Shown piece after piece: positions 7,084 through 59,200 of a DNA stretch of 64,000 bases (position 1 is the first letter of the stretch; the number at the start of each line of letters is the position of its first letter). The notes below the pieces were generated by a model. That model was not told the origin of the DNA. It worked only from the letters and a program-made list of their open reading frames with translations, and made no database searches. Source of the stretch: Amphiscolops sp. MND2022. Taxonomy: Eukaryota. A program made the position numbers and the translations under genes. The DNA lies in contig OZ076409.1 of assembly GCA_964187785.1 (NCBI GenBank), positions 1,922,001 to 1,986,000 on the forward strand. The letters run 5' to 3'.

Positions 7084-7298
7084 GTCATTTTAATTTTAAA
7101 TCAGAGACAGTTTCGAAAAGCAACGGCGGCGAGATTTGGTTCCTCCAAATACTTGGAACATTCGGTCAACTGCAAAAGCTTCAGTTTCTCAGAAAACTTT
7201 TTTGAGATGCTATGAAAGACAGGACCTCGGTGTACGTAAAACTCAAACACGTCAACTTCCCATTATGAAAGAAGGTTTTACTTTTAACTAGGCTAGTC

Positions 7299-7464
7299 AG
7301 TAGTAATCGAATTCCCGTTCCTTATATATAAGAAAAATTTAAGCTCGTAAAACCATTAAAAAATTAATCTTTTTTCACAAAATACCAATCAAACCATCTA
7401 AAAATTAGCCTTTTTTCGCAACTAAAAATTTAACAAAATAAAAATCGATGCACAAATTTTCCAA
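7299..7464 (+). repeat. Polinton left TIR
   Basis: AGTAGTAATCGAATTCCCGTTCCTTATATATAAG... is the reverse complement of the right end. Identity decays after about 150 bp. Confidence 0.93.
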
Positions 7465-7892
7465 AGAAACATTTGTCACAAACCAAAATTGAACTAACCT
7501 CCATCGACGTATAATAGAATTATTACCACATCGTGAAGAAATAATGAATACTTACCAAATGCGTTCAAGTAGAAAACACAAGTGTCCAAATTGAAAACGA
7601 GTTTTTTTCTTCATTTTTACCCATTAAAAAATTACATATAAAAATTGATGAACTCATTTTTCAATATAGATAAATTCACGGATGCGCACAAGTGGACACC
7701 ACAACTGTTGGAAAAATTACCACCATATAAATTTCAAACAGAATTTCACGCACCAGACGGTCGTCTGACCTTGAGGTGCATTCGGAATGCACCAAAATTT
7801 CATTTTTCACTTTTCTCTCTACAGTCACAGCAAACAGCATGGCCGAAGAAATGAAACTGGCAAAGAGACTTTTTCCATTCGGACTTTCACTC

Positions 7893-8450
7893 TTAAACAT
7901 GTAGAGATTACTAATAGATCAGGAAAAAAGCCATAACTCAACGAATATTTGAGTTAGAACAAAGTATAATATACCATTGAAAAGGTCTTGACTAGGGTTA
8001 TCTATCTAGATACAATTCAAAAACCTAGACTGAAACTATACCATCTGAAACTTCGAAAAACCTGAAACCCTTAAACATGTAGAGATTATAGAAGTTCAAC
8101 ATATCACAGTGTATGATACATCATTGGAAAGGTCATAAAAAAGAAATCATAGATGGTGATTATCTCCATGATCGGACATCCTCAGCTGAAACTATACCAT
8201 CTCAAACCTGAAACCCTTAAACATGTAGAGATTATAAAAGTTCAACATATCACAGTGTATGATACATCATTGGAAAGGTCTTGAGTTGGAGATCACAGAT
8301 TTTGAATATTTTCATGATTGGGTACCCACAACTGAAACTATACCATCTCAAACCTGAAACCCTTAAACATGTAGAGATTATAAAAGTTTAAGATATTGCC
8401 ATGTGTGATACATCATTGGAAAGGTCTTGAGTTTCTGATTACAGATTATA
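7893..8450 (+). repeat. Polinton subterminal tandem array, period 146 bp
   Basis: TTAAACATGTAGAGATTA at 7893, 8071, 8217 and 8363. Each unit contains a catcattggaaaggtc-like motif. Confidence 0.85.
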
Positions 8451-8600
8451 AAAATTTTCTTAAATGAAAAATTTATCATTCAAATCTGTGGCAAATTTTA
8501 ATACCTTACCACCACAAAATTAAAATTTTTTTCACCAATTTTTTGAAAAATTATAATTGAAAAATTTTTAATTAGACTATTTTTTCTTTAATAAATAGAA

Positions 8601-11600
8601 ATGGAGAATTGTAGTATTTGTAATTTAAATTATAAAAAAGCTTTCAAGTCTGATCATCTAAAATCAGTAAAACATCTTGAAAAATTAAATCAATATTATT
8701 GTAAAAAATGTAATTTATATATGCCTATCTCAGATAAAAGTTCTCATTTAAATTCAGATGAACATAAAAACCGCATCAATAAAATATGGTGTGAAGATTG
8801 TAGTAAATATATATCTGATACAACAAGACATTTCCAACGTGAAATTCATTTACAAAACCGTCAACAAAACGGTATGCAAAGCCAGCGAAGCTGTATTACA
8901 GATTTCGGTACAGCTTTGCTGCCCTCCGGTAATGGAGTAAAAATAATTGTGAATGAAAACACATACATTAAACTGAAAATAAATCCAACTGAAAATCTTG
9001 AAAACCGTATAAAAGAATTATTAAGTAAAAGGTACTTTCCTCGATTTAAATATCAATTGAGTTATCTTGCTAAATTTTCAAAAATAATCAATGGAGAAGA
9101 AGAAGTATTTAAAAGATGGATAAAATCAGATCTAATATATAATCACACACAACAAGATACTCATAACACATTAATACAGAAATTAGATGATGAACAATTA
9201 GAAGGATCAGGTTTTGTGTTTCAAGAAATAGAAGAAGTTATATTAGGAATATATAAAGTTAATGATATTCAAGCATCTTCATATATTGAGTTACCACCAA
9301 AATATAAAAACAGCCAATCAATAAAAAATAAAAAAAATAATGATCAATTTTGTTTTCTATGGTGTATATTAGCATATTTATTTCCAGTTGAGGATAATAA
9401 AAATATAACATCGAGTTATTCAAAACATTTTGATAAATTCAACCTAGAAGGTTTAGAAATCCCTATGAAAGTCAAAGATATTCCCAAGTTTGAAAATTTA
9501 AATATTGGACTGTGTATAAATGTATTCGAACTCACTGGAACTGTACTAACACCAATCCACGTTAACAAAAATTACTTACAACCACAAATAGATTTATTAT
9601 TATATCAAAATCACTATTGTTTAATAACAAAGTTGCATTGTCTAATAAATAAAGATTCACATATGAAACATGTATGTAGAAGACGTTTAACAGCATTTAG
9701 TTCACAACCAGTTCTAATTGATCATTTGGAAAGATGTATAAAACAACAACCAACTAAAATCACATTCAGTTGGAAGGATCAGTTAAAGTTCGAAGATTAT
9801 CATATGAAAGTCCCTGTACCAATAAGAGTATATGCTGATTTTGAATGTATCAATCAACCTCAAAACACCCCCAACGTGTTATTCAAACAAATTCCAATTG
9901 CAGTAGGATATTATGTAGTTTCACCATTCGGAAATTATTACCATTCATACTTTGGAATAGATTGTACCACGTGGTTTGTAAATAGAATGTTAACTTTAGA
10001 AAAAATTGCAAATAACTATTTTAAAACAAATTTAGAATTAGAAATAACTCCTCAATAGGAAGAATCGTTTCAACCTGCAGAAGAGTGTTGGCTTTGTGAA
10101 AAGCCACTCGGTGGTGAAAAAGTTAGAGATCATGATCATCTAACAGGAAAATACAGAGGAGCAAATCATAATATATGTAACATAAATTGTAAACAAAGGT
10201 CATCAAGTTTTGTTCCTATATTTTTCCACAACTTTTCGGGGTATGATTGTCATCTTATTTTTGAAGAACTCTTAACCGAAGCATACAATCAAAATTATAA
10301 TCCAACGATAATTCCAAAATCACTGGAAAATTATGTTAGTGTACAAGTAGGTTGTTTGAGATTCTTAGATTCATACCGATTTCTTTCTTCCAGTTTAGAT
10401 AAATTAGTTAAGAGTTTAGACAATTTTCCTATCATGAAATTGGAAGGAATGAGTGATGATTTATTCAAAAAGAAATTAGCTTATCCCTATGAATACTTAA
10501 ATCTTGATAACTTTCGGGAACCATTAAATCTAACCAAAGAAGATTATTGGTCAACATTAACACAATCTTATCCATCAGATGATGATATAAAAAGAACCCA
10601 TAAATTATTTGAAAAAAATGAAAGTAAAAATGGAAGAGAATTAACAATGTTATACTTAAAAATGGATGTTCTTCAATTTGCTGATGTATTTGAAAATTTT
10701 GTGGAAAGTTCTACACGAGAATATAAAATTAATCCTTTGTACTCTTATAGTCTACCTGGTTATACATGGAAAGCAGGATTGAAGTTGACTAAAATAAAGT
10801 TAGACTATATAAAAGATACAGCGAAGCTGCCCTCCGGTAACGAATTATTACTACTACTTGAAAATAATATCCGCGGAGGAATTTCAAGTGTAATGGGTAA
10901 TAGGCATGTGCAATCTGATGAAAATAAACAAATCTTATATATTGATGCAAATATTTTGTATGGATGGGCAATGAGTCAATACCTTCCTACTGGAGACTTT
11001 AAAAAGATAAAGCTCTGTTGTGAATATGATTCTGTACTGATGAATGAAATTAAAGAAGACATTTTTAATACACCAGATGATAATGAATATGGATTTTTTA
11101 TAGAATGTGATTTAGAATATCCTGTTGAAATTAAAGAAAAAACAAAAAACTTCCCTTTTTGTCAGTATCAAACAAAAGCAGATCCAAACTTATTCTCAGG
11201 TTATATGAATAATGTAAATCAACCTAATTACAAACCAACATCAAAACTTATATGTGATGTAACCAATAAATCGAAATATATGATACATTATAGGATGTTT
11301 AAGTTTTATCTTAACCAAGGGATGAAAGTAACGAAGATACATACTATTTATAAGTTTAAACAAAGTCCATGGTTAGGTAAATATATCGATCATAATACTC
11401 AGAAACGCACAGTAGCGAAAACAAACTTTGAAAAGGATCTTTATAAATTAATGAATAATGCTTTCTTTGGGAAGACTATGGAAAATGTAAGAGATAGAAC
11501 CAATCTAGAATTCATTGATCATTCTCAAATAGATCAAATAATAAAAAGACAATCCAAGTTAAGTTTCAAAGGAATCATGGATCATTACTCTAAGTTTTGT

Positions 11601-12398
11601 GTGTACAAGTTTGATAAAGAAAAAACAGTCTTTGATAAACCAATTTATTTAGGTTTTACAGTTTTAGAACTATCAAAACTATTAATGTATGAATTTTATT
11701 ATAACAAATTACAACCATATTGGAAACAATCCATACAACTACACTACATGGACACTGATAGTTTTATTCTGAGTTTTGATACAAACCACCAAGAACTAAT
11801 AAACTTTTTACAAGAAAACAAAGATGAATTTGATTTCAGTGAATTACACAAATCTCATGAATTATATGATCCTATTAACAAGAAAGTTATAGGAAAAATG
11901 AAAATTGAAACAAGTCCAGTTTTGGTGTTAGATACCTTCACAGCATTGCGATCAAAGTCATATTCTTTTAGTTATAATAATAATATTAATAATAATAATA
12001 ACATACAAAAAGCGAAACAAAAAGGAATACAAAAAACTCCCAAATGTGGAGAATATCAGAAATCATTGTTTAATTCAGACACATCAAGTTCTACAAATAT
12101 ATCAATTAGATCTAACTTACACAACCTTACAGTTGAAAAACAACCTAAGTTGTGTTTGAATCCTTTTGACGATAAACGTTTGTATATAAATCCAATACAA
12201 AGTTTACCATGGGATAAACACACACAAAAAGGTGATTGTCCATGTAAATATTGTTTGAAATTAATTGGTTTGTATTATAAAGAATTAACCGAAAATAAAA
12301 CAGATGAAGAAATATATTGGAGTGTTTGGTATTGGAAACAAGCACTCACCCATCAACAACTTGTGAAGTTGATAAGTGATCGAGCACATGTTTTATAA
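8601..12398 (+). pseudogene. Protein-primed family B DNA polymerase (pPolB) with N-terminal zinc fingers and an endonuclease VII-like domain; one in-frame TAG at 10056-10058
   Basis: ORFs 8601-10058 and 10356-12398 share a frame and the gap is open (CWLC...VRDHDHLTGKYRG..H..CN). Motifs: YADFE, HNFSGYD, FLDSYRF, IRGG, YIDAN.LYG, KLMNNAFFGK, YMDTDS. Confidence 0.95.
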
Positions 12399-12522
12399 AA
12401 ATAATATTTAATTTTTTATTTATATTTATAATTATTATCATTTTATAAAAATAAATATATTATTTTATAAATTTATTTATCATATCAGCAAAGCTGTATT
12501 AATATATTTAAATTATATTTAT

Positions 12523-13752
12523 TCATAATAAATCAAAATGCCTTTGTCCATCACTACTGATACTTATCAGCTTGGGTGTTAGGACTAGGGCATAAGCTAT
12601 ATAATCTGCTACATTAATGGCAGCATTAAATTTGAATTCTAATCTAATAGGTTGACTCCCGATGGGGTCTTTTTGTTTGGATAAATCAAATACATAGAAA
12701 TTATAATTTGTCCTGAATTTATGCAAATCAATAAACGGATTGAGTAGATTAGTTTCACTTTTTAACAAATAGAAGTTTTCAATTTCACTGTATGCTTGAT
12801 CATATTTATCTCTATCATAATCACATTCTATTCCATCATCTGGAAATTTTTCTGATCCTATTTTACAAACAGCATTTGAAATAGGTAACCTATCAAATAT
12901 TGCATTATCATGTGTTTGTGAATCAATTTTATTTCTAGCTTGAAAAGCAACAATTACAAAAGTTGGTGTTGATTCTCCACTATTACCTAATTCAAATGTC
13001 CAATTATTATTCGTGTTAACATCTTTTCTAAATACAATCCGTTCCATGTAAAATAATTCAGTTGGATCTTTGTCTATTATTTGATCCATCACGAGTTGTT
13101 GGTTTTCCATTGATGGTGTGTAGTGTGGAATATGCCAGGAGATGTCTTTTATATTTATTTTTGCAGCATCTACACCATTGTCCATGATAATAGGATCATT
13201 ATTATTATTTCGTTTTAATGTGAGACTGTAACCCAATCCATAAGTTATTTTTTCTTGATCAGCGAATCCAAACAAGTCTTTTAGTTTTATTCTCACAAAA
13301 AAGGTTCCTTTCTCTGTCTTATTGTTAGTTAGTTCTTGTCTTCTGATAGTACTACTTTCTTCAAACCCATACATCAATTGAGAAGTTTGTTGAGTGCTAG
13401 TTAAAAGTTTAATCATTAAAGAGATGGGGTGCAAATTTTCAACTTTTTCTAGGTGTTTTCCCGAACTTGTTGTCAGCTTAGCTTCACTAAATAAAGCAAC
13501 GGGCCCAAAGTTAACTAAACTTATTTGATCACCATCTGCATATCTTGTATCATCATTTTTAAGAACTTCAAATTCTAATGATATATATGAGTTTTGTAAA
13601 CAAATATATGCATCTTCTCTTGGGAAGATGATGGAAATGTTTGAATTATTATTGTTGATTGTAGCTAAACTACTTGGACTATATTTAATAAAATCAATTT
13701 TATGAACAGGTTTATCCATAGCATATTTATTTTTCAATGAAAATAATTCCAT
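12523..13752 (-). CDS. Polinton major capsid protein (double jelly-roll)
   Basis: Intact 409-aa beta-rich ORF. The C-terminal pattern P.FVIVAFQ...FD...YVFDLSKQ...IRLEFKF is typical of Polinton MCPs. Context supports the call. Confidence 0.85.
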   Translation of the reverse strand: MELFSLKNKYAMDKPVHKIDFIKYSPSSLATINNNNSNISIIFPREDAYICLQNSYISLEFEVLKNDDTRYADGDQISLVNFGPVALFSEAKLTTSSGKHLEKVENLHPISLMIKLLTSTQQTSQLMYGFEESSTIRRQELTNNKTEKGTFFVRIKLKDLFGFADQEKITYGLGYSLTLKRNNNNDPIIMDNGVDAAKINIKDISWHIPHYTPSMENQQLVMDQIIDKDPTELFYMERIVFRKDVNTNNNWTFELGNSGESTPTFVIVAFQARNKIDSQTHDNAIFDRLPISNAVCKIGSEKFPDDGIECDYDRDKYDQAYSEIENFYLLKSETNLLNPFIDLHKFRTNYNFYVFDLSKQKDPIGSQPIRLEFKFNAAINVADYIAYALVLTPKLISISSDGQRHFDLL

Positions 13753-13813
13753 TTAAATAGGAATAAAAATTAGGATTTAAAATTTATACTGATTTTATTT
13801 TTACTTAAAATAT

Positions 13814-14335
13814 TTATCCTAAAAAAGTAAACTCAGAATTTAGTTTAGTTTTATTTGTTTTATATAGATCGTAAGTTTGTTTTAATTTGTTGTATTCATT
13901 CAGACCAATTTTATTGTCTTCTAAACATTTTGAATGTAGTTTTTGGTAGTCGTGTAGTGTTCTACCAGCAAGAGTATATTTTTTGATATTTTGTTGTTCT
14001 TTTATTTTCAGGTACTCTCCAGCAATTTTACTGATTATACATAAACCTGCACCTATACCACTTGCTATAGGTACAACAACAAGTCCAACTCCTGTGACAC
14101 TCAACGTGACACATGTTGATGATACTGCTAGTACTGAAACTCCATCAATAGATTGAATTAAACCGTTTATAATTTTATATATTTTAGATTTCTTTTTATA
14201 CTTTTTAGCTTCATGATTATAAAAATTTTGAATATCTTTTATATTTTGAATTGAATTAGTAAAACTATTTATTTCTTTTAATCTAAGATCAAGATTCTGA
14301 TCTTGTTGTAAACATGGGTACAATTTTTCACTCAT
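13814..14335 (-). CDS. Conserved Polinton membrane protein with two hydrophobic helices
   Basis: LYP.L...LRL.EI N-terminus, basic patch, Gly-rich hydrophobic hairpin (VTLSVTGVGLVVVPIASGIGAGL) and C-terminal L.D.KI...EY. Resembles from memory the ORF labelled gasderminX in adintovirus annotations. Confidence 0.65.
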   Translation of the reverse strand: MSEKLYPCLQQDQNLDLRLKEINSFTNSIQNIKDIQNFYNHEAKKYKKKSKIYKIINGLIQSIDGVSVLAVSSTCVTLSVTGVGLVVVPIASGIGAGLCIISKIAGEYLKIKEQQNIKKYTLAGRTLHDYQKLHSKCLEDNKIGLNEYNKLKQTYDLYKTNKTKLNSEFTFLG

Positions 14336-14358
14336 TTATTTTAAATAAAAACTTAATT

Positions 14359-15090
14359 TTAGTTTTCAAAAAGTATGAAATTTATCTCAGTATCGGTTAG
14401 TTTCATTCTATATTTAAGGTCAACTATATCTTTGTATTCATCTTTCTTTAAGCACTTCACGATATCTTCTCGCGTTGAATAGTCTAAGTCTGATAAATAA
14501 TACACACCATCTGATGTCTTTATTTCTGTTCCGTATTTTTCCAACAAGTATTCATCACTAAAATATAAGTACTCAATAAAGATTTGGTCTTTATTTTCAA
14601 ATGAGTCAAACAATCCTTTGTTATATAATAATTGAATAGTATCCTTGACTGCTTGATTTTTACATTTTTCCAATTCTGAAATAAGGTTTCTCTCAAAATG
14701 ATTACGTAAAATGGTTTGTTGTTCTTCCACTAACTTGGCAGCATCCAAAATAATTTCTTTCTTCTTTTCTAAAAATTTATTTTTAACATCTTGTTCTAAA
14801 TATTTCAAATTTCTTTTTATATCTTCTATACTCTTGTTAATGTCTAAGAATAACTTTGCATTGACTACGATTTGTGTTTCATCGTTGATAAATTGAATTT
14901 CTTCTATGTTTTGCAATTTACCGGAGGTGCTTTGCATATTGAACTTTTTTAATTTATCACCAAAGGTGCTTTGTAAATCATTAAGTTTTATATTAATTAA
15001 TTTGGTTTGTGGTTCAAACTCTTTTTCTAAATTCTCAATCTCATCTTTTTGTAAGCTTTCGGCACTATAACCGAATTTATGAATTGACAT
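14359..15090 (-). CDS. Polinton coiled-coil protein of unknown function (MSIHKFG N-terminus)
   Basis: 243-aa intact ORF packed between Polinton genes. Confidence 0.7.
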   Translation of the reverse strand: MSIHKFGYSAESLQKDEIENLEKEFEPQTKLINIKLNDLQSTFGDKLKKFNMQSTSGKLQNIEEIQFINDETQIVVNAKLFLDINKSIEDIKRNLKYLEQDVKNKFLEKKKEIILDAAKLVEEQQTILRNHFERNLISELEKCKNQAVKDTIQLLYNKGLFDSFENKDQIFIEYLYFSDEYLLEKYGTEIKTSDGVYYLSDLDYSTREDIVKCLKKDEYKDIVDLKYRMKLTDTEINFILFEN

Positions 15091-15107
15091 TATTTATTTA
15101 AATATAA

Positions 15108-15966
15108 TTACTCATAACGATGGAAAATATTCATACTTTCTAACGTTTTGTTGTTAGATTCAAAAGTGAATACACTTCTTAAAAGTTCTTGTTCATAATA
15201 TTTTCCTTCTATTTGTTCGTTGTTTTCATCTACTAAACCATACGTAACTGGGTTAGTTGGATTAATTTTGTGTATTTTAAAAAGTTCTCTATTCCAATTT
15301 GTTGTATAACCTTTTGAATAAATGTTCCTTTTGTCAGGAACTCTTACATAGTCTCCCACTTGAAATTTGGGTATTTTTTCATTTTTATTAATATTAATAT
15401 TGATAATTTTATTAGTATTGGTAACCATTTCAAATGGTGTCATTTTTGTTGTTCCATGGACACGATTATTATATTTTTCCATAGCAGTATCTAGATGATT
15501 CAACCAACAAGCTTTACCTTCAATATACATTGGTTTTTTTTATTAGATCTAATAATGTTCTTTTGAAGCGTTCAACAAAAACAGCTTTTAAATCTGAATT
15601 AGTTGAATAAATTTGAATTTCATTTTGATTAAGAAAATCTAAAAATGTTTTATTATAAAACTCTTTACCTCTATCTGACCAAATTTTATCAGGTTTTCTT
15701 TTTGTTTTTTCGATAAGACTTTTTAATGCAGTTGTTGTACTTTTTCCTGATTTATCTTTAAGAGGAATCGCCCATGCATATTTAGTATAGTTATCAATTA
15801 TTGTAAAAATGAACTTATAGTTTTTATTATATTTTGATAAGCTAGCCCTGTCTATCAGATCGATACTCCAACATTCATCTTTATATTGGGGAATTATTTT
15901 AATGCGATCAAACTTTTTAATTACAGGAGAGAATATTTCTTTAACAATTTCTTTCTTTTCATTCAT
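15108..15966 (-). pseudogene. Retroviral-type (rve, DDE) integrase, frameshifted in an A8 run at about 15534-15541
   Basis: WSIDLID, WSDRGKEF and VERF catalytic motifs. Continues in ORF 15108-15530 (YNNRVH...KMTP, FQVGDYVR, KGYTTNW, YYEQEL). Removing one A restores IKKPMY. Confidence 0.92.
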
Positions 15967-15980
15967 TTATTTCCCAATAA

Positions 15981-17011
15981 ATGAATAAAAAACTATATAT
16001 AGGTTTATTATGTGTAATTTTTATTATAATTTTGTGGGTGTATTGGTATTATATTAAACCTAATTATTATAAAAAATTATACCAAAAACTAAAGCAATTC
16101 AAGGGATTTAAATATTCTCATTTACAGCGAAGCTGCCCTCCGGTAACTATCAAAGAAGAAGAACAAGAACTTACTCCACCAAATACAAATACTAATTGAC
16201 AATTTTTGGTGTATGGTACTAGTGGATCAGGTAAGACTAGTTTCCTTAAGTATTATTTAGATCAAACTAAATCAAAATTTATAGTATTCGGTAGAGATGA
16301 GACTGAGTTTAAAGATAATTATATACCTTTGTTACAGTTAGAAAATATTGAAATAGAGAAACTTGCTAATAGAACTATAATTTTAGATGATGCAGGAGCA
16401 TTCAAACAACTCAGAACTAAAGTAGAAGACTTATTTCGGTTTGGTAGACACAATAATATACAAGTTATATACCTTGCTCACTATGCAAAGGATGTTCTCC
16501 CAATAGTGAGAGAGAATTGTTTTAAATTATATATCACAATAAATAATCCAGATAGTTTCATTGAAACCATAATACAAACTTATTCAATCAAAGAAGATCT
16601 CAAATGGAAACAATATCGTAGTCAGTTAGAATTTGGTGTAATTGAATTTGATACTAGATCACAAAAGTATAAAATACTCAATCAAAAGTATCAAGTAGTA
16701 TATGATACAAATAACATAAATGGAGTCCCGAGGATTATGTAAAATATGAAAGTTATTTCTTTACAGGTGAAGAATACAACAAACTCAAGGTGTTTTTAGA
16801 AGAGATGTCAGATCAAACAATTGAAATAACACCTTTTAATGTAGCTTATTATTATGTATATTATTGTAAACAAAATAAAATAAAAGTGAATGAATCTAAA
16901 ATAGACAACTACGTTGAACGCATGCAACAACCACTAATTTCAAATCAACTTAAAGAGGAATTTAGGAAAATTATAATTGATCAAGCAATCAGGTTTAGTA
17001 AAAGTAATTAA
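15981..17011 (+). pseudogene. Packaging-type (FtsK/A32-like) ATPase 1 with N-terminal transmembrane anchor; in-frame TGA at 16197 and frameshift near 16715
   Basis: ORFs 15981-16199 and 16206-16742 are in frame. Walker A GTSGSGKT, Walker B IILDD and GRH motif. The C-terminal part continues in 16790-17011. Confidence 0.8.
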
Positions 17012-17028
17012 AAAATGGGTCTGATTTC

Positions 17029-17150
17029 TTAGTAAAAAATCACTAAGCAAATTCACTAAGAGCATATATTTTTCACTAAGCAAATAAGGTTACACTTAAA
17101 ACATCATGCTCTTAGTGAATTTGCTTAGTGATTTAGTGATTTTTTACTAA
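17029..17150. repeat. Intergenic inverted repeat with ~37-bp arms built of CACTAAG units
   Basis: ttagtaaaaaatcactaagcaaattcactaagagcat (17029-17065) pairs with 17106-17150, which carries an extra 8-nt repeat. Confidence 0.85.
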
Positions 17151-17154
17151 ATGA

Positions 17155-18153
17155 ATGAAGTGTTTAATTTGTGGAAAAAGTAATGAAAAATCTGTCTGCT
17201 CCGATTGAGAGAATAAAAAAAGATGTAAAGTGTGTAATATACTGAAAACAACAAATGGTACAAATATAAATTGGTATAAACATAGAAATGGTAAATTGTA
17301 TAGTACATGTATAGAATGTTTCAATAAAAAAGTAAAATGTGAATTCTGTAATAAAGAATTAAATAAAACTTATTTATCAAAACATTTAAAAAGATGTAAT
17401 AAATTATTAGAAGATGTATCTTATTTAAATAATAATCAAATTGATGATGATAATGAAAATCAAATTGATGATGATAATAATCAAATTGATAATAATCAAA
17501 TTGATGATAATAATGAAAATCATAATAATCAAATTGATGATAATAATAATCAATTTGAAAATAATTGTAATAGGACATTGATAGTTGGCCCATCATTTTG
17601 TGGTAAGACCCATTTGTTATTAAACAAATTACAGTTAATTCGATTGGATGATAATACAAGGAAAATTCATATTATTACAAGGAGTCCGGAACAAAACAAT
17701 AAAATTAAAATAGAAGATGTTTCAGTGGAAGAAGATTTAGGTGATAAAAGTATTCAAGATTTTCAAAATTGTTGTGTTGTATTTGATGATATGTTAGACT
17801 CCAATCAGAAATTAATAGATCCATTTTTTACTAGGGGAAGACATAATGATTTAGATGTTTATTATTTATCACAGTCATACTTTGATTTACCTAAAAGAAC
17901 AATTAGAAACAATAGTAATATCATAATTTTATTTCAACAATCATTGAAAGATGTAGAACACATTTATAGAGACATAGCAGGTTTTGATATGTCTTATGAA
18001 GAATTCAAAGAATTGTGTAGAGAGGCATGGCGGGAGAGGTACAACTATTTATTAATAAATAGGTTAGAAGATAAAAATGGGAGTAGGTATAAAATTTGTA
18101 ATGAATCTAATCCGGAGTATAAAACCTTTAATCCACAAACTGATCCTTTTTAG
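17155..18153 (+). pseudogene. Packaging-type ATPase 2 with N-terminal Cys-rich zinc fingers and NQIDD(N) repeats; in-frame TGA at 17206
   Basis: MKCLICG...VCSD*ENKKRCKVC is in frame with ORF 17230-18153. Walker A GPSFCGKT, Walker B VVFDD, FTRGRH, LSQSYF and IRNN. Confidence 0.88.
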
Positions 18154-19119
18154 TAAATGCTGAAAGAATGTTTTGATGTTGATTTGTTGTAATGCATTGG
18201 TACTGTAATAATTTATCTGCAATTGCTATAATTTGTTCATTAAGCATAGGATTATCATTTCCTCCTACTTTTTCAAAATAAAGTAGTTTTAATTGATCTA
18301 CAAGCTCATCAGGATCCGATGGAAGGAAGACATACTGATTAAATCCACTTCCTAATTGGGATAGTTGATAAGGAATATGTTGATATATGTATTGATTAAT
18401 TAAATCTTTAATGAAATAATATCTCTTTGATTTTTTATCTCCATAATTTATATTATATTTCATATCTTTTAAAAAAGAATAAATTAGATTCGTATTTTGT
18501 GGTATTTTGTCTATTTGTGTATTCGTTATAAAATTTGAAAGATCCGGATCATTCAAATAATACGTGTTACCATTTTGGAATATCATTGCTGAACCTTTGA
18601 TTAATACCTGTTGAGGATCAGTAGGGTTAATTGTGAATAAATTGGAACTTCCTTCCACGGGTTATAAACTAAATTGACTTTTGTTGTTGTCATTAAGCAA
18701 ATTAGAAACTGTCTTAACGATACTAGAATCAACTTGGTTTGAGTTAACAAGATCTGTAACAATTTGATTATTACGATTTGTAATTTTATCATATTCTTGT
18801 ATTCCTTCTTTAACTGATTTATGTAATTTTTTATTAAGAGTATTACTCGATTCTTGTATTGCTCTAGTTTGGTCTTGTATTGCTTGTGTTGTAGTTTGGG
18901 TAGAATCACGTAGTGCTTGAATCTGCTTTTCAGATTCTAGCTTGGTTTGGGTTTGGCTTTTTTTCTGATTTTCAGTAACAGGTTCAAAAACTTCTTCCAT
19001 ATCATAGTGAAAGTCTTGCTTCCCTAGTTTCTCTTTTAATCTTTCAGCTTTCAAAGAAGATTTTGTTTCTGCAATTTTTTTAATTTCTCTAAATCATCTC
19101 GATTATGAATTGAATACAT
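18128..19119 (-). pseudogene. Conserved Polinton protein with C-terminal LP.DP.ELV..L.LL...GN motif; stop at 18662-18664 and frameshift near 19078
   Basis: ORFs 18662-19054 and 18128-18658 are in frame. An upstream ATG at 19119 (MYSIHNRDDL) is joined across an A-run. Confidence 0.7.
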
Positions 19120-19168
19120 AATTTATTATTCATAAAAAATAGCATTTAATTTACAGCAAGGCTGTAAA

Positions 19169-19570
19169 TCAATGAATTTCACCTAAATACAGGCCTTTTC
19201 CTTGATGAACAAATTTTATAATATCAGGAGCAGTTCCAGCTATCATTCGAGGATTTTTACTTGCTGCAGCTGTACCAATATTTGCTGCTAGCTCTAATGC
19301 TCTTCCAGGATTGTTTAAAATTTTCTTTCCGACACTCTTGGCGGCTTTTCCTATACCTCGGAAAAAGTCACCCAATCCTTCTGCTTGTATTGTTTGATCA
19401 GACACTATAAGTGATTTATTTCTTTTACAAGAGGAACAAGTACCTCTTAATAATTTAACAGCTGCTCCTGTTTTTTTATTTTGAGTAATATCTCCACGAA
19501 TATTTATGGTAGCGGAATAATGTTTTCCACCAACACAATATGAATTATTTTTAAATTTACTAAAGCTCAT
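19169..19570 (-). CDS. Small basic virion-like protein: zinc ribbon plus amphipathic helix
   Basis: YCV...C..C, GLGDFFRGIGKAAKSVGKKIL helix, terminal GKGLYL motif. Confidence 0.7.
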   Translation of the reverse strand: MSFSKFKNNSYCVGGKHYSATINIRGDITQNKKTGAAVKLLRGTCSSCKRNKSLIVSDQTIQAEGLGDFFRGIGKAAKSVGKKILNNPGRALELAANIGTAAASKNPRMIAGTAPDIIKFVHQGKGLYLGEIH

Positions 19571-19659
19571 TTATTAGAAAAAAAAATATTCATTTTTTCT
19601 TCAGCACAAACTTTCAGTTTGCAAACTTTTAGTTTGTAAACCTTTGGTTTGTATTTATA

Positions 19660-20685
19660 TTAAATCTTGATGATTTGAATTGTAAATGTTAATGTCTCCC
19701 CGTTGAAATCAACTGGATTATGGTTGGAATCTTCTAAGAAAAATTGAATACTATCTAACCTTGTTTTGTTAATTTTTTTATACAAAATAATTTTGGGTTC
19801 TTTTATAATTTTATATCCGGGAGGAGCACTAAGATTAAATGAAAATAAAATTTGTTCTCTAATCCCATTAACAATTGAACCATCTACACAATCACATTTC
19901 AGATGAACTTTGTCTGTGGTTGTTATCATAACTGGTTTTTCTGATATATGAGTTCCTTGTATATAGTGTGTATTTGTGAATCCTAGAAGTTCATTTAATT
20001 TTGAATTAAAATAAATGGGATTAGAAGTTGTTAAGACTGATTCCATTGATATTGTATTTGCTTCAATGTTGAATTCAAATTCAAAATCACTATCAGAAAG
20101 TTTTTGATTCATAATTCTATTTATATCAATTAATTCGTATACTCCTGGTGTTAATTCAATTTCAACGAAATCATTTTCAATTCCAAATTCAGGAATAATA
20201 ATTGTTTTATCTTTGTTATTTTGATTAATTTGATTAATTATTTTCTTTAGTTGATCAAAATCTTTTTTGATAAGTTTCTTATTTTTAGAATAACTATCAA
20301 TTATAAAATTATTAATTTTTTCTATACCGGAGGTGCTTTGCATATCAGAGATTTTATACAAATACTCAACATTCATTACTAATTGAGTGTCAACGTTTAA
20401 TGATTTGAGTTGTTCGTCTTTTAGAAGAATTTTAAGTTTATTGTTCTTTTCAGTAATGTTTTATACAGTGTTGTATACTTCTAAACTTGTTACTCCCATC
20501 ATCCATTGTTCTGGTAAGTCTAGTGGAATATCAAATGAAAAAGATTCTTTTTGTTTAGTCATTTTAAATTCTAAAGTTTCTTGTGGTTTGGATAAGGTAT
20601 TTTCAACAATATCCAAATTAGATTTTGCAATACTCAATAAAAGAGATTCTTTTTTATCATAGGTTACAAAATTTGATAGATCCAT
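19660..20685 (-). pseudogene. Polinton minor capsid protein (penton, single jelly-roll); in-frame TAA at 20461-20463
   Basis: ORFs 20461-20685 and 19660-20376 are in frame. C-terminus CD.VDGS.VNG...IL..F....PGYKI...P....Y...D....VDFNGE. Confidence 0.85.
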
Positions 20686-20688
20686 TTA

Positions 20689-20892
20689 TTAAGCGAAAAA
20701 TTGTTTAAATCCATTTGCAGATATCTTATTTATAAATTCTTGGTTTTGTTTTGATAATTTCTTTTTTGGATTATTTTTTTCTATTACTTTCTCATCAAAT
20801 TGATTCTCACAGCTTCGCTGGCTTTGCATATTGGTATTCATTGGTTTTTGAATAAATTTAAATTGAGCTGAATAATTATTAATTTTCTTCAT
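20689..20892 (-). CDS. Small Polinton ORF of unknown function
   Basis: 67 aa, abuts both neighbours, starts at TAAATG. Confidence 0.5.
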   Translation of the reverse strand: MKKINNYSAQFKFIQKPMNTNMQSQRSCENQFDEKVIEKNNPKKKLSKQNQEFINKISANGFKQFFA

Positions 20893-21288
20893 TTATAAAT
20901 TTTGGTAGTATAAATTTAAAACTGCATTTTTGAAGCCTATAATTTGTGTAAGATATAACACATACAAACAATAAGCTGCACAATAACTGTCGTCTTTCTG
21001 GATTTGATATTCTGAATAGATACCCTTATTAATTTGTTTTGTTATATTTAGTGGTGGTGGACAGCCATATGAATCGAAATAGTTTTGGTTTGTAAACATA
21101 ACCCAATGTGTTCCTTTAGTTGGATGTAAGTTAACTATACCACTGGTGGTTATAAATTTATCATATCTCATATATATTCCACAAGATGTGTTCATGAGTT
21201 TTAAGATTTCTTTTATTTCTACATTGGAAGTTGCTTCATTTTTTAATCCATATTTATTAACAAATTCTTTGATTGATAAATAATTCAT
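20893..21288 (-). CDS. Adenain-like cysteine protease
   Basis: GTHWV, YFDSYG and Q..Q....CAAYC catalytic motifs. Confidence 0.92.
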   Translation of the reverse strand: MNYLSIKEFVNKYGLKNEATSNVEIKEILKLMNTSCGIYMRYDKFITTSGIVNLHPTKGTHWVMFTNQNYFDSYGCPPPLNITKQINKGIYSEYQIQKDDSYCAAYCLYVLYLTQIIGFKNAVLNLYYQNL

Positions 21289-21336
21289 TTAATAGTTATT
21301 TTTCCATGATTATATCTTGGTCAATGAATTTTCCAT

Positions 21337-21502
21337 TGGAAAAACTTGTTCATTAATTTTTATTTTGTTAATTTTTCAGTTGTGAAAAAAGGCTGATTTT
21401 TAGATGGTTTGATTGGTAATTTGTGAAAAAAGATTAATTTTTTAATGGTTTTACGAGCTTAAATTTTTCTTATATATAAGGAACGGGAATTCGATTACTA
21501 CT
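21337..21502 (-). repeat. Polinton right TIR
   Basis: Ends ...GGAACGGGAATTCGATTACTACT. Confidence 0.93.
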
Positions 21503-22231
21503 AATTCCCATTATGAAAGAAGGTTTTACTTTTAACTAGGCTAGTCTAATGTTTTTAAGAAAAGTTACTTCCAAAAATTTTGGTGTTTTGGGGGGGGACA
21601 GAAAAGTGCCCTCAACACAAGAAATTTCAACACGCTTCGCACTTCATATTAACTTCAGTTCAAAGGTGAAAAATTACTCAGTATCTCTCAATAAACAAAC
21701 TAATTTGTGCCTTTGGATGATTAAGCTTCACTCTTGGTTATACCAATGCCTCGATTAATTATAACTATCAACTATTTAATAAATCAACGTGCACAACTTT
21801 CGTGAAAACTGAAACGGAAAGTTATATGAGAAGCCACTGAGAATTTCTTGCGTTGTGTCGCAGGCGGCCGCCGGTGACGGGACTATGATTACGACTTCAG
21901 AATCTGGACAAGAAGCCGCATGTATACTTCCGACATATTAAAAGTAAAACTTTTGCTTTGACTACACTATTTTAGATTGCCCTTTTGTCATGAATTGTTG
22001 CATTTAGTAATGATATTAGATTTGCAATTAGTATTAGTCTGTTAAATTTTACAATCTGAAATATGCAGATCAAGAATCAGAAGTGCTGTTTGTAACAGAT
22101 TACAAATGAGATCTAAATGCAAAAAGTTGAAGCGGATGTATAACACTGCGTAGAAGTACGGAAACTAGATCATGTGAGCTTCTGTACTTCTGCGGCAGCG
22201 ATACTTTCAAGCATATTATTACCCAATCAGA

Positions 22232-25437: not shown

Positions 25438-26799
25438 GTAACATTTTAACAATTAAATCACAAACGGATGAAATATCCCCCTTCAAAGTAATTTTCGCGC
25501 TTTTCTGTACCCCCCCCCACCATCAATTTTTTTATTGAAATTTTTTTTTCAAAATTCAACCTGGTTGAATTCGAAGTGAAGTTTTTCCCATAATAGGATT
25601 AACTTCTATTGGAATAGTTTTCATTTGAACAAAACATTTTTCACACAATTTGACTGTGAAAATGTTGAAAATTAACCGTTTTCTGTGACTTAAAACAGGA
25701 AGTTGTTGAGTTTTCAACAAGAATGCGTGACTTCATAACTAAAAATAGCGTGAACAAAGTTGGTTCTGAATTCTAAACTGTCATACTGAGAATGAATATA
25801 AAAGTAAAGGTTTCTAATTTAGTTCTAAGTCTTTTTGTTTCAATATTTTCACAAAATATGTTTTAGAAAAAAGGTGGTGGGGGACAGAAAAGAGCCGTCA
25901 TTTTAATTTTAAATCAGAGACAGTTTCGAAAAGCAACGGCGGCGAGATTTCGTTCCTCCAAATACTTGGAACATTCGGTCAACTGCAAAAGCTTCAGTTT
26001 CTCAGATAACTTTTTTGAGATGCTATGAAAGACAGGACCTGGGTGTACGTAAGACTCAAACACGTCAACTTCCCATTATGAAAGAAGGTTTTACTTTTAA
26101 CTAGGCTAGTCTAATGATTTTAAGAAAAGTTACTTCCAAAAATTTTGGTGTTTTGGGGGGGGGGGGCAGAAAAGTGCCCTCAACACAAGAAACTTCAACA
26201 CGCTTCGCACTTCATATTAACTTCAGTTCAAAGGTGAAAAATTACTCAGTATCTCTCAATAAACAAACTAATTTGTGCCTTTGGATGATTAACCTTCACT
26301 CTTGGTTATACCAAAGCCTCGATTAATTATAACTATCAACTATTTAATAAATCAACGTGCACAACTTTCGTGAAAACTGAAACAGAAAGTTATATGAGAA
26401 GCCACTGAGAATTTCTTGCGTTGTGTCGCAGGCGGCCGCCGGTGACGGGACTATGATTACGACTTCAGAATCTGGACCAGAAGCCGCATGTATACTTCCG
26501 ACATATTAAAAGTAAAACTTTTGCTTTGACTACACTATTTTGGATTGCCCTTTTGTCATGAATTGTTGCATTTAGTAATGATACTAGATTTGCAAATAGT
26601 ATTGGTCTGTTAAATTTTACAATCTGAAATATGCAGATCAAGAACCAGAAGTGCTGTTTGTAACAGATTACAAATGAGATGTAAATGCAGAAAGTTGAAG
26701 CGGATGTATAACACTGCGTAGAAGTACGGAAACTAGATCATGTGAGCTTCTGTACTTCTGCGGCAGCGATACTTTCAAGCATATTATTACCCAATCAGA

Positions 26800-46760: not shown

Positions 46761-47303
46761 GCGACATTTGTTATCAGGCGACAAAAGTTATCAAGCGACA
46801 TTTTTATCATTTTTGAAAAAGCGACATTTGTTATCAAATTGAAAAAGCGACATTTGTTATCAAATCTAAAAAGGCGACATTTGTTATCAAATTGAAAAAG
46901 CGACATTTGTTTTCAAATCTAAAAAGGCGACATGTGTTATAATGAATTCAATAAGCTGAAAACGCGTGTCAGATTTTGTCGGAATTATTATTATAACGTA
47001 GTCAGCTATGTTCACATACCCCTAGTGCCCTAAATGCAGGAGCGAAGCGAAGCGAAGCGCAGCGACGTGCCATATGGCCATGCCTCAATGTTGCTACTTG
47101 GCGAAGGGAGCGAAGCGACCGAGCCATACAACAAATATATAAAAGACAACAGGTATAGTAGACACATTTTGATGAAGAAACCTTTTTAGATTTGATAACA
47201 AATGTCGCTTTTTCAATTTGATAACAAATGTCGCCTGTTTACATTTGATAACAAATGTCGCTTTTTCAAAAATGATAACAAATGTCGTGTGATAACAAAT
47301 GTC
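46761..47303. repeat. Inverted pair of ~21-bp tandem arrays around a GCGAA-repeat core
   Basis: (GCGACATTTGTTATCAAAT..)n at 46761-46937 and (..TTTGATAACAAATGTCGC)n at 47181-47303. Confidence 0.8.
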
Positions 47304-56256: not shown

Positions 56257-59200
56257 TGTGGTAGAGCACATGCTAAAGAGAAAACAATTGTGAGAAAATA
56301 ATTAATTAACACAATTGACAAAAAATAACAACCTGCCAAATAATGTGAAAGTGGCAAAAGCAGACATATTGCCACATGTGTCAATAGCGTCAGATAATAC
56401 AGTCTTCACACATTCAGTCTTTCTATTCTTACTGTCAGTCGAGATCGTAGTCGTTAACATGGCGCTGCGAGCTGAAGACGAAAACTCCAATTCACCCCTT
56501 CCTGGACTGAATTACTTCTGGCAAGACGCAGAAAAACCCCCCGGATACGAGTGGGAACAATGGATTCAACTCTTCGAGGTTGCAACGTTGGCCAGACACT
56601 CAATTTCAGTATCTGAAGTGCTAAGGGAGGCAGACCAACAGAATCCACGAGCAGCAGCATTGATGGGAAATCTGGAGGAGATTCCTGCAAAAAGGAAAAT
56701 TGTAAGTTTACTGTACATTTCAATCGGAAAGAACGGAAGAAAAATGTTAATGGATAAATTCCCAACCATTAATATTTTGCTAATCGAACTTCGAGAACTA
56801 ATGCAGAACTGTAACGAGTGTTTCCAAATACGGCGGAACCGTACTTTAGATCGTCACGTATTCCTTTCCCGAAAGCAAAAACCATCGGAGTCGCTAAACC
56901 AGTTTTGGAACGCATTAAATGGCCTTGCGGCTAAATGCAACTTTGGCGACCAAACAGAGAGCTTAGTACATGATATTCTCGTACTAAATATGGCAAATAA
57001 ACAAGTGCAGGAGAAATTGTGCACTGAACCGAAGGAGACCCCAGCCGAAGCCTTACAATTCGCTATCGCTTTCGAAGACGGACTAAAGCGTCAAAAATCC
57101 TATGGCTACATTAATCAAGAAAGTAAAATAAAAGAAGAACCCGTCTGTGCAGTCGGCACGAGCAATTCGAGAGAATGCTGGAGGTGCGGAGCCGGAAATT
57201 TCACCCTTGATCACATCAAACGCTGTAAAGCCACAGAGGCTATGTGCAACTACTGCGGACGCAAAGGCCATTTAGAGCGTGTATGCAACCAAAAGAGAAA
57301 AGACGCTTACCAGAAAAATGGCAATTCTAAAGTAAGTGGCAGAAGAGTGCAGTTAGTCGAGCAGGACAATTCGGATTGTGAAGAAGATGAAGACTACATG
57401 GTGCTGAATGTGGAAGGCGGAAACAATGACTCAAAGCCATTCTATATGAAGGGATTCATCAATGGCAACCACTTCAAAGCCATGATAGACACGGGATCTC
57501 CTGTAACCATCTTTGCACTAGATGAGATAAAGCGAATCATGAAGAGGGAAAAGCTGCCAGTACGGCCGATGATTGAAGGCGAGCGTTACGTGGACTTTAA
57601 TGGAAAACCACTCCAACTACTGGGATATGTCTTCTGTGAATTGCAAGTGAATGATAGCTATATCCGAAAAGCCAGAATTCTAATTGCCCGAAGCGGATCA
57701 AAATCAATAATCGGCAGAGAATGGCTAACAACACTACGGTACAAGCTGGAACCAGAAAAGGGTGAGTTGGAAGTAAATTCAATAGAAAAAGAAAATGAAC
57801 TAAGTCCAGAAACCAAGCAACTAGTTAACGAATTTCCGAAATTATTCATAAGGCAAGGAAAAGTGAATAATTATCAAATAAAAATTAACTTGAAACCAGA
57901 ATCGAAAGTAACTCAACAAAAGGGAAGAAGAATTCCAATTCAGCTGCAAAAAGCGGTGGACGACGAGATTAAAAGATTGCTAAAAGAAGGCCATATCGAG
58001 AAAATTGACGAAATTAAAGATAACGTCTTTATCCAACCGACTGTAATTACAGTAAAGAAAGATCGTTCAGTAAAAATTGCGTTAGACGCACGCGCATTGA
58101 ATCAGGCAATCGATAAAGATAAATATCAAATGCCAAATCTAGATAATTTACTAGATATGGTCGCAGAAAAACTGGACACGGTTGAAGGCGAAGCATGGTT
58201 CTCGTCGGTAGATATGACGTACGCTTATGGCCAAATTCCTTTACACCAATTAACAGCGAAACAATGTAATTTTCGAATTATCGGTGGGGAATCCACCGGA
58301 ACGTACAGATTTGTTACGGGTTTTTATGGTCTGTCGGTTATGCCAACAGAATTTCAAAAAGTAATGGATAATTTATTAGCTAAATTTAGAGAAGTGTTTG
58401 TATTTATAGATGATATTTTAATTGTAACTAAGGGAACAAAGCAGAACCATTTAGACAAAGTGCGGGAAATTATGAAAACGCTGGATGAAGCAAAATTACA
58501 ATTAAAGGCGGGAAAATGCAAAATAGCAAAACAAGAAATTGAGTGGCTAGGCTTCAAAATGACAAGTCAAGGAATTTCGCCAGTAAACTCAAAAGTGCAA
58601 GGCATAACAGAAAAACTACGGCCGACAAATTTGAAAGAATTGCGATCATTCCTTGGCGCAGTAAATCAATTCAATAAATTTATACCGGACCTTGCGTCAA
58701 TTTGCTTCCCATTTAGATCTATACTAAAGAAAGACGCAAATTGGAATTGGTCAGAAGATCATGAAAAGACATTTAAAAAAGTAAACGAAGAAGTGAAAAA
58801 AGTAGCAGAATTAACGCATTTCAAAAGAAATAAGCCACTGAGAATCATATGCGATGCGAGTAAACAAGGTCTAGGGGCCGTGTTACAGCAATGTGAAGAA
58901 AACACATGGAAACCGATTGCATACGCTTCGAGATTTTTATCAGAATTAGAGTCCAAATATTCGATTAATGAATTAGAACTATTGGCGGTAGTGTGGTCAA
59001 TAGAACATTTTAAAAATTACGTGTACGGAGTCGCATTCGGAATAGTCTCAGACCACAAAGCTTTGCAAAGCGTCCTTAGACCAAATAAAGGTAACAAAAC
59101 CTTTTCAAGTCGGTTAACTAGGTGGGTGGATAGATTGTTGCCATTCGAATTTCACATTGTACATACACCGGGAAGAACATTGGGAATGGCGGACTATCTG

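Follow-up and report, generated by a model that had tools for sequence, protein, structure and literature searches.

Probable selfish micro-elements of 18–21 nucleotides in a Polinton family of Amphiscolops sp.

Introduction

The spread of short non-coding hairpin repeats is a decades-old puzzle in both mitochondria and bacteria, in which the donor, the target and the enzyme have been elusive. In REP/RAYT systems a small hairpin is recognised only as single-stranded DNA and is cut in its neighbourhood. The Ssn GIY-YIG nuclease likewise recognises its NTS/SRM hairpin repeats only as single-stranded DNA and cuts beside the hairpin (PMC11893778). Mitochondrial double-hairpin elements (DHE) are known from Allomyces and fission yeasts; these reports describe GC-rich units of two adjacent hairpins supported by covariation, which are optional at each site, located mostly in intergenic regions or rRNA genes, without flanking duplication and with an unexplained mechanism (PMC10085805, PMC2800124). 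Yeast mitochondrial GC clusters (e.g., GC42) are GC-rich palindromic units in AT-rich DNA, which vary in presence, merge, shuffle and form tandem arrays; they show a target-site duplication, and intron endonucleases were proposed as their movers (PMC4478555). Palindromic elements of Rickettsia (~150 bp) are inserted in frame at tolerant sites of unrelated genes and are translated into a conserved peptide (PMC10969869). Finally, the GC/GC and CC/GG stems are the two that yield a stable mini-hairpin in DNA, whereas the corresponding hairpin in RNA is far weaker; AAA loops form no stable 7-mer mini-hairpin, and d(GCGNAGC) hairpins, which resist exonucleases, are described as structural motifs of origins and promoters and are not known to be mobile (PMC13037366).

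The window analysed here is a stretch of 64,000 nucleotides from Amphiscolops sp. MND2022 (contig OZ076409.1). An initial annotation had described GC-rich hairpin motifs in the genes of a Polinton and had offered two readings, either a minute selfish palindrome which spreads inside the virus or a signal, scattered through it, for packaging, replication or RNA processing; all of its motifs were recovered where it had placed them. The cassettes resemble DHE in each of the features named above except location and size, since they reside in a nuclear-integrated virus, mainly in protein frames, and the Polinton elements measure 12–21 nt, have a defined pyrimidine|purine (Y|R) target and are specific for a virus family. 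With the GC clusters they have in common the GC-rich palindromic build within AT-rich DNA, variable presence, merging and shuffling of units and tandem arrays, although these clusters are longer. Unlike MITEs, the cassettes have only one terminal base pair and no target-site duplication, and no transposase gene flanked by cassettes was found among the unmatched ORFs. They share a small hairpin unit with Ssn/NTS and REP/RAYT, but searches of the Polinton proteins showed no GIY-YIG or HUH gene linked to them; at host GIY-YIG loci (30 of 88 matches examined) there was no Polinton gene and one cassette-scan match in 96 kb. In a literature consisting largely of open-access papers, no description of such cassettes in a Polinton or virus was found.

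Results and Discussion

The host Polinton

The Polinton/Maverick element carrying the cassettes (7299..21502, unstranded; "family A") possesses terminal inverted repeats of 167 nt, pPolB, an rve integrase, a double jelly-roll capsid and an A32 ATPase, which are hallmarks of the group; the capsid, integrase and ATPase domains of family A were detected by profile search. Several genes of the window copy are broken. Target-site duplications were of 6 bp in 15/15 measurable sister copies; at the copy in the window, ~41 bp are duplicated instead. The predicted model of pPolB resembles phi29 polymerase. For two Polinton proteins without an assigned family the Atlas search gave no usable match. Within pPolB, at 10080..10184 (+ strand), an endonuclease VII-like (HNH) domain was recognised by a match to PHROG 423 (E=2.7e-5) and, under the cut-off, to Pfam PF02945 (E=0.0014); a 54-residue query found no endonuclease VII relative of solved structure. 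The motif occurs in families A, B and C and in 77 of 116 distant pPolBs.

Structure and distribution of the cassettes

Each cassette has the build A-[hairpin][hairpin]-T and comprises 18 or 21 nt, i.e., two abutting hairpins with loops of 3 nt, with a purine at the 5' end and a pyrimidine at the 3' end. A scan for structure only found seven intact cassettes in the Polinton (14.2 kb), with inner stems GC/GC or CC/GG, and none in the remaining 49.8 kb of the window; 40 dinucleotide shuffles gave a mean of 0.025 matches. Counting of motifs inside and outside, which had been suggested as a check, yielded 7 and 0 for CAGC-NNN-GCTG, 4 and 0 for ATGCAAAGC, and 5 and 0 for CCTCCGG. Genome-wide, exact cassette motifs numbered 87, 162 and 1122, versus 0, 0 and 5 for reversed-pattern controls. 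Sampled 17-mer matches were within Polinton DNA in 30/30 cases, and so were all of the 28 listed from a second set of 30 cassette loci; three of 30 sampled 12-mer matches fell in a host repeat outside Polintons, which counts against restriction.

Stems covary among cassettes, whereas loops vary. Of 332 copies of module a (which are not independent of each other), 310 have a Watson-Crick outer pair, in the forms C-G, T-A and A-T. GNA triloops had been claimed throughout; they hold for module c (82/89 sites), but in module a AAA is the commonest loop (55/107) and GNA is found at 29/107 sites. Module c and the 12-nt element of family B (see below) agree well with the proposed relation to d(GCGAAGC), module a less so. 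The likeness to d(GCGNAGC) mini-hairpins includes the GC/GC and CC/GG stems and the GNA loops and would extend to exonuclease resistance (PMC13037366). Standard folding of single cassettes gave only -1 to -3 kcal/mol, with z-scores near zero; nearest-neighbour folding fails to capture mini-hairpin stability.

The sister family B has its own element of 12 nt, GC-NNN-GC-NNN-GC, with GNA-type loops in 581 of 862 cases. A-type cassettes were counted 182 times in family A stretches, once in B and not in C; B-type elements 359 times in family B stretches and not in A or C. The pPolB region examined in family C contained no inserts, despite the endonuclease motif. Comparison of the families revealed no gene unique to those bearing cassettes; ORF 14359 is the most divergent between A and B (27–41% identity). 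Twelve inspected alignment rows of distant pPolBs, a weak test, had no obvious cassette peptides. Five exact 18-mer matches in IMG/VR were all without Polinton genes and near chance level, and neither the capsid query against viral contigs nor pPolB and 23-mer queries against metagenome contigs found a match.

Individual cassettes in the window

Three cassettes of 21 nt are located in pPolB, all on the + strand. For 8874..8894 (modules a+b, peptide MQSQRSC), 19/38 copies were 21 nt shorter, but with another local haplotype and no exact empty allele. The unit at 8910..8930 (module b, flipped, and c; TALLPSG) is intact in 14/39 copies, with a clean 21-nt gap in 19/38. The unit at 10818..10838 (modules b+c; TAKLPSG), before the IRGG motif, is filled in 39/39 close copies and empty in 3 loci, and other copies hold an 18-nt cassette instead; the insert would be a loop according to the predicted model (pLDDT 71). 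A conserved protein motif was excluded, since at this best site the insert is missing from 93 of the 106 homologous proteins reaching the motif. Identical DNA is present in the 5' part of the ATPase gene (16124..16144, +, 21 nt), where it is translated in a different frame (QRSCPPV), as had been pointed out before; 24/37 copies are 21 nt shorter. The remaining cassettes are on the - strand. ORF 14359-15090 contains an 18-nt cassette at 14920..14937 (modules a+c, MQSTSG; 15/39 copies 18 nt shorter, 8 of them with one identical empty allele) and an eroded one of 18 nt at 14959..14976 (LQSTFG), of which no exact empty allele was seen among the copies compared. In the penton-like gene, there is an 18-nt cassette at 20326..20343 (a+c, MQSTSG), where 3/32 copies are 18 nt and 16/32 copies 15 nt shorter and two loci show the exact empty allele; for the 21-nt cassette at 20809..20829 (a+b, MQSQRSC), in a short frame upstream of it, 14/31 copies are 21 nt shorter.

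The initial annotation had identified the correct sites; judged by the empty alleles, its limits were 1–2 nt too wide at four of them, and the copy which it gave as 14958-14975 does exist, although eroded and displaced by one position. Alignment of copies and related pPolBs, which it had recommended, demonstrated presence/absence indels of 18 or 21 nt, divisible by three, and together with the sampled copies in Polinton DNA this supports its selfish-element reading.

Rules of insertion

Among the sister copies, 126 cassette sites were counted. An exact empty allele was available for 57 of these, some within tandem arrays, and was not found for the other 69 in the copies sampled. Junctions were Y|R at 116 sites (Y|R makes up 23% of steps), and the first and last cassette bases were A and T at 111. 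No target bases were duplicated or lost; the exact empty alleles without duplicated bases include targets of the types C|A, T|G and C|G. Target, left, right and tandem junctions follow one common consensus, D-Y|R-H, with T at position -1 in 166/222. Cassettes abut another one at 16 sites and are nested inside another at 6, although cassette boundaries represent only ~0.3% of Y|R steps. Their number is 1–10 per Polinton copy, place and orientation differ among copies, and 16/34 sites are private. Both orientations occur (42 versus 36 relative to genes); modules appear in shuffled and flipped form, a single site is occupied by two types of cassette, and homogeneous tandem arrays exist. An assembly artefact or adapter was excluded by the stem covariation, by sites common to copies on different chromosomes and by cassette peptides recurring in independently deposited proteins.

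Reading frame and protein tolerance

Of 78 genic cassettes, 62 are situated at codon boundaries (expected fraction 0.42), and none of the 78 is in the capsid gene; these two biases indicate that cassettes were filtered on working proteins. Private sites have the same codon-boundary bias (39/46), so that filtering preceded integration. The frame and capsid bias of private insertions argues that, prior to integration, the Polintons multiplied under selection to keep the capsid functional, which bears on the question whether animal Polintons are real viruses. The 78 sites encode 51 different peptides of 4–7 residues, in any frame or strand; they are not conserved, in contrast to the peptide of the much longer Rickettsia elements (PMC10969869). 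Selection on proteins would retain only in-frame inserts located in loops. The in-frame cassettes mark loops in pPolB, integrase and ATPases which tolerate extra residues and would offer a natural loop-insertion scan of Polinton proteins. Micro-introns were also considered; the absence of GT-AG ends in the sequence, both orientations and the constant frame speak against them.

Possible mechanism and alternatives

The cassettes are very probably mobile selfish elements, and likely among the smallest known in DNA. It seems rather probable that a viral enzyme moves them in cis during viral replication, and they probably travel as folded single-stranded DNA through the action of a virus-encoded nuclease. 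Strand-displacement replication by pPolB would expose single strands, on which the mini-hairpins could fold; a nuclease attracted to them might cut Y|R steps on either side, and the released, exonuclease-resistant cassette might be inserted at another Y|R cut, either of the same genome or of one replicating alongside it. Uncut donors would be replicated, and cassette numbers would thereby be maintained. Since all junction types have a single consensus, entry and exit would both be accounted for by one preference in cutting. The best candidate enzyme would be the endonuclease VII domain fused into pPolB, which can be named as the specific mover only tentatively; the motif is insufficient, since it is present in family C, where the pPolB region examined has no inserts, and is widespread among distant pPolBs. 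Y-junctions are nicked by T4 endonuclease VII, whose cuts are mostly 3' of thymine (PMC10956419), a preference which may be set beside the T at -1. Abutting and nested insertions are indirect support for cleavage beside hairpins. A hydrolytic nuclease would require a separate ligase, which counts against the endonuclease VII model, and an HUH-type transesterase would better suit the precise junctions; profile searches detected no HUH or recombinase family among the Polinton proteins. The prevalent AAA loops of module a, the weak standard folding values, the sites without an exact empty allele and the lack of a gene specific to cassette-bearing families also count against the model.

Movement in a single conservative exchange, possibly through a closed mini-dumbbell, by the Polinton integrase or by a viral strand-transferase of HUH- or topoisomerase-like type that has escaped recognition, is rather unlikely. 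It would account for exact junctions without end loss and for the consensus shared by four junction types; the folded strand, as deduced from its sequence, would be a nicked dumbbell with one-base flaps, and several Polinton proteins are without assignment, with ORF 14359 diverging most between A and B. The integrase, however, yields 6-bp duplications at 15/15 measured Polinton ends and cassettes have none; a suitable transferase family was not detected, and the target preference of a+c cassettes appears symmetric. Spread without a dedicated enzyme, by template switching of pPolB at hairpins, with one cassette copied and return through 1–2 bases of microhomology, is improbable to a greater degree. 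The polymerase is presumably strand-displacing (phi29-like model), the terminal T or A of a cassette often equals the target base, and shuffled modules, the doubly occupied site and homogeneous arrays would be expected; template switching probably explains flips and array growth. With one base of microhomology, however, T|T or A|A targets should be frequent (these make up 29% of steps); 5/126 were observed, and C|G targets, without T or A match, were seen 7 times.

That the hairpins are functional signals for termination, packaging or priming, kept and scattered by the virus, is very improbable. Origins of phages and the N4 promoter contain DNA mini-hairpins (PMC13037366), and two intergenic single hairpins, nearly fixed at gene 3' ends, have constant stems and variable loops; yet the varying number, the private sites and the balanced orientation do not fit, no coding site requires a cassette, and none occurs in the family C pPolB region. 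The signal proposed earlier is accordingly unsupported for genic cassettes, which vary among copies in number, place and orientation. Still less credible is an RNA-mediated route, in which RNA would be cleaved at Y|R, re-ligated and reverse transcribed, a route put forward for the mitochondrial DHE. In its favour, RNA is labile at UpA and CpA steps. The absence of target duplication, an argument applied to the Allomyces elements (PMC2800124), is another supporting point. Against it, orientations are equal relative to genes, stems and loops obey DNA mini-hairpin rules, no reverse transcriptase was found in the Polinton, and host enzymes would not respect the borders of Polinton families.

Returning to the nuclease model, it is conceivable, if doubtful, that the 12–21-nt units form a class of minimal, lineage-specific mobile elements, maybe the smallest on record, which parasitise a eukaryotic DNA virus, co-evolve with it, and are excised from displaced strands by a polymerase-fused nuclease and re-inserted without a footprint. 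If true, this would for the first time put a name to an enzyme behind the spread of double-hairpin elements, GC clusters and in-frame palindromes, and would offer a mechanism that can be tested at the bench. An element with exact ends, a clear target rule and copies in the thousands, filled alleles as well as empty ones, is directly testable, and since the 14-kb host encodes only few candidate enzymes, the question of the mover could be approached with oligonucleotides and single domains.

Single intergenic hairpins

Two single hairpins between genes were additional to the motifs first listed, and for these the dispersed-signal reading is possible. A module-b hairpin (12486..12496, unstranded) between the converging pPolB and capsid genes is for the most part fixed among copies and is possibly a terminator or an eroded cassette. 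A single A-hairpin-T (19153..19165, unstranded; hairpin 19154-19164) just 3' of ORF 19169-19570 is a possible terminator; its length is constant in 29/33 copies, and it has a fixed stem and two loop types.

Occurrence and structure of the cassettes

The Polinton at 7299–21502, which has 167-nt inverted repeats at both ends and capsid, integrase and A32 ATPase domains, is parasitised by double mini-hairpins, a family of minimal mobile elements for which the literature search turned up no earlier description. A tiny selfish palindromic element in the virus had been proposed in the initial annotation as one of two readings; this is supported by exact empty alleles, with flanks meeting precisely, at 57 of 126 sites in 140 loci and the window (some within arrays), while for 69 sites none was present in this sample. 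All motif positions reported earlier were confirmed in the window; a scan by structure only gave seven hits inside the Polinton, zero in the other 49.8 kb and 0.025 per shuffle. Genome-wide, three patterns had 87, 162 and 1122 exact copies, versus 0, 0 and 5 for reversed controls. The first 30 loci by position of one pattern were all Polinton DNA (30/30), as were at least 28 of the first 30 of another, among the matches listed; being first by position, the loci of both samples cluster in fewer elements.

Cassettes are composed of module a (NGC-loop-GCN), module b (CAGC-loop-GCTG), which flips orientation, and module c (CC-loop-GG). Of the combinations, a+c measures 18 nt (70 sites); a+b (37 sites) and b+c (19 sites) both measure 21 nt, the latter including one spare base. 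Watson-Crick pairing (C-G, T-A or A-T) joins the outer bases of module a in 310 of 332 copies, which describes a pattern rather than a probability, since copies are related and overlapping loci were counted twice. Loop sequences are variable among cassettes: the GNA triloop described at first is found in module c (82/89 sites, read from its own end), but module a has mostly AAA (55/107) and less often GNA (29/107). The structural scan required a leading A, two adjoining hairpins with triloops and G/C inner pairs, and a closing T; the inner stems among its listed hits were solely GC/GC and CC/GG, though others were permitted. These are the two stable DNA mini-hairpin stems, the RNA counterpart being much weaker (PMC13037366); this suggests that selection acts on the single-stranded DNA form, although AAA loops do not make the stable 7-mer and standard folding energies are weak.

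Some larger arrangements were also seen. At 8883–8921 a 14-bp stem (z = -3.2) could form between two module-b hairpins in inverted orientation, separated by 17 nt. Tandem 18-nt cassettes, up to about eight and some of mixed types, occur within pPolB at two other loci (L139:3900–3990, L139:8110–8240 and L140:4570–4720). A 36-nt long form that shares the anatomy of the cassettes (an A, then a pair of triloop hairpins whose stems have 6 and 8 bp, then a T) but is unrelated to them in sequence is inserted at a T|A step in loci L247–L255; its 10 copies all occupy one site, corresponding to 18330 in the window.

Mobility and insertion sites

Forty copies of family A, to which the Polinton of the window belongs, contained 181 cassettes at 34 sites (1–10 per copy), 16 of these sites being private. 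Exact empty alleles were found for the cassettes at 8910, 14920, 16124, 20326 and 20809; the site at 10818 was occupied in 39 of 39 close copies, yet three loci have it empty, as do 93 of 106 homologous proteins, whereas 8874 and 14959 vary in length with no exact empty allele seen.

Terminal bases were A and T at 111 of 126 sites. Junction steps were T|A (71), C|A (24), T|G (14), C|G (7) and other (10); pyrimidine|purine (Y|R) steps make up 23% of the element, and their excess at cassette junctions is highly significant (P ~1e-61). Position -2 was C in just 4 of 222 cases, and the resulting pattern, D-Y|R-H, is re-formed at both junctions by the cassette's own ends. Sixteen sites abut another cassette and six are nested in one, far exceeding the 0.3% of Y|R steps that are cassette boundaries.

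Among 78 sites in gene matches (42 in one orientation, 36 in the other), 62 start at a codon boundary (target-weighted expected fraction 0.42, P ~1e-11), and none lies in the capsid gene (P ~4e-4). Private sites show the same codon-boundary bias (39/46), and the TAKLPSG insert of pPolB (residues 251–260) is placed by the predicted model, which matches phi29 polymerase, in an inter-helix loop of lowered confidence (pLDDT 71). Insertions were thus presumably filtered on working proteins before copies integrated and decayed.

A second element in family B

Three Polinton families were compared, the genome containing thousands of pPolB candidates. Family B (pPolB identity 70–75%, same gene set, different gene order) is without A-type cassettes and has instead in-frame 12-nt inserts, GC-NNN-GC-NNN-GC, in loci L176–L194 (GC 0.31 loci), L226–L237 and L256–L283. 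At 12 nt, this may be the smallest mobile unit known. The first loop is of purines and the second of pyrimidines in 379 of 431 matches, and 581 of 862 loops are GNA. Y|R steps are used at 75 of 95 sites, and the exact empty allele is the commonest shorter form at 25 of the 95. One variant has 1611 exact genome copies versus 15 in controls; 27 of 30 sampled matches were in Polintons and three in a host repeat. A-type cassettes numbered 182 in 78 family-A stretches, one in 54 family-B stretches and zero in 15 family-C loci; the corresponding counts for the B-type were 0, 359 and 0.

Family C (pPolB identity 51%; L326–L355) has no in-frame pPolB cassettes, and a fixed non-coding tract beside the gene is rich in GCGAAGC words; this tract is a possible source of modules. 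A host repeat whose inverted arms are long (46800–47290; L313–L315) also has many such words in its core, and three copies of it contain the exact family-B 12-mer.

Possible mechanisms of movement

The cassettes are very probably a mobile element, and the mechanism of their movement appears unusually tractable. Its established features are exact R...Y ends, Y|R targets, lack of duplication, two hairpins, family restriction and attraction to existing cassettes. The Polinton integrase fits poorly as the mover: all 15 sister copies that could be measured have the 6-bp duplications it leaves, and none occur at cassettes. Were template switching guided by one matching base, T|T or A|A targets should be common, as opposed to 5/126 observed. 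A host enzyme working on chromosomes is unlikely, since two families in one host genome carry separate elements; movement in cis or among co-replicating genomes is likely. A link to GIY-YIG, an idea taken from PMC11893778, was looked for in 30 of the 88 host matches, with a negative result.

On balance, a viral enzyme acting in cis is favoured. Cassette hairpins would fold on displaced strands, both Y|R boundaries would be cut, and the released piece would be joined into another Y|R cut. The cutting enzyme could perhaps be the endonuclease VII-like domain carried by pPolB (PHROG 423, E=2.7e-5), the best candidate. Its Cys-x2-Cys, Asp-His-Asp-His and Cys-Asn motif is present in families A, B and C; of 116 long, distant pPolBs, 77 have it too. 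T4 endonuclease VII is described as nicking Y-junctions and cutting chiefly 3' of thymine (PMC10956419); nuclease inserts in Polinton pPolBs are already known, with no function assigned (PMC11161782; bioRxiv 10.1101/2023.08.22.554363). Against this candidate, a ligase has to be assumed, and family C has the domain but lacks inserts in the region seen.

Comparison with known elements

Mitochondrial double-hairpin elements work alike, but differ in location (PMC10085805, PMC2800124, PMC7218506, PMC5910586). The likeness to Rickettsia palindromes and GC clusters drawn in the initial annotation holds for the way of working and fails in one defining feature of each: cassettes lack the target duplication defining GC clusters (PMC4478555) and differ from Rickettsia palindromes in size and peptide (PMC10969869). 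No description of such elements in a virus was found in the openly accessible literature searched.

State of the Polinton copy

The copy in the window lies between two directly duplicated stretches of a host repeat (7258–7298 and 21503–21546), each about 41 bp long, versus 6 bp in sister copies; uninterrupted copies of this repeat lie near 26040 and 29155. Compared with the natural longer frames, stops or frame changes (10056–10058, 15520–15539, 16197–16199, 16715–16742, 18659–18664 and 20458–20463) break pPolB, the integrase, the first ATPase, the gene at 18128–19054 and the penton-like gene. Another A32-like ATPase, which has a zinc-ribbon at its N terminus, is located at 17209–18153; in family B the corresponding part resembles a phage endonuclease profile (PHROG 2340, E=2.6e-4), and an Asn/Asp-rich repeat comes after it. 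A 146-nt unit occurs three times in tandem (8058–8495) in the variable left subterminal region. Outside the Polinton, an open frame of 1606 codons extends over 56315–61135.
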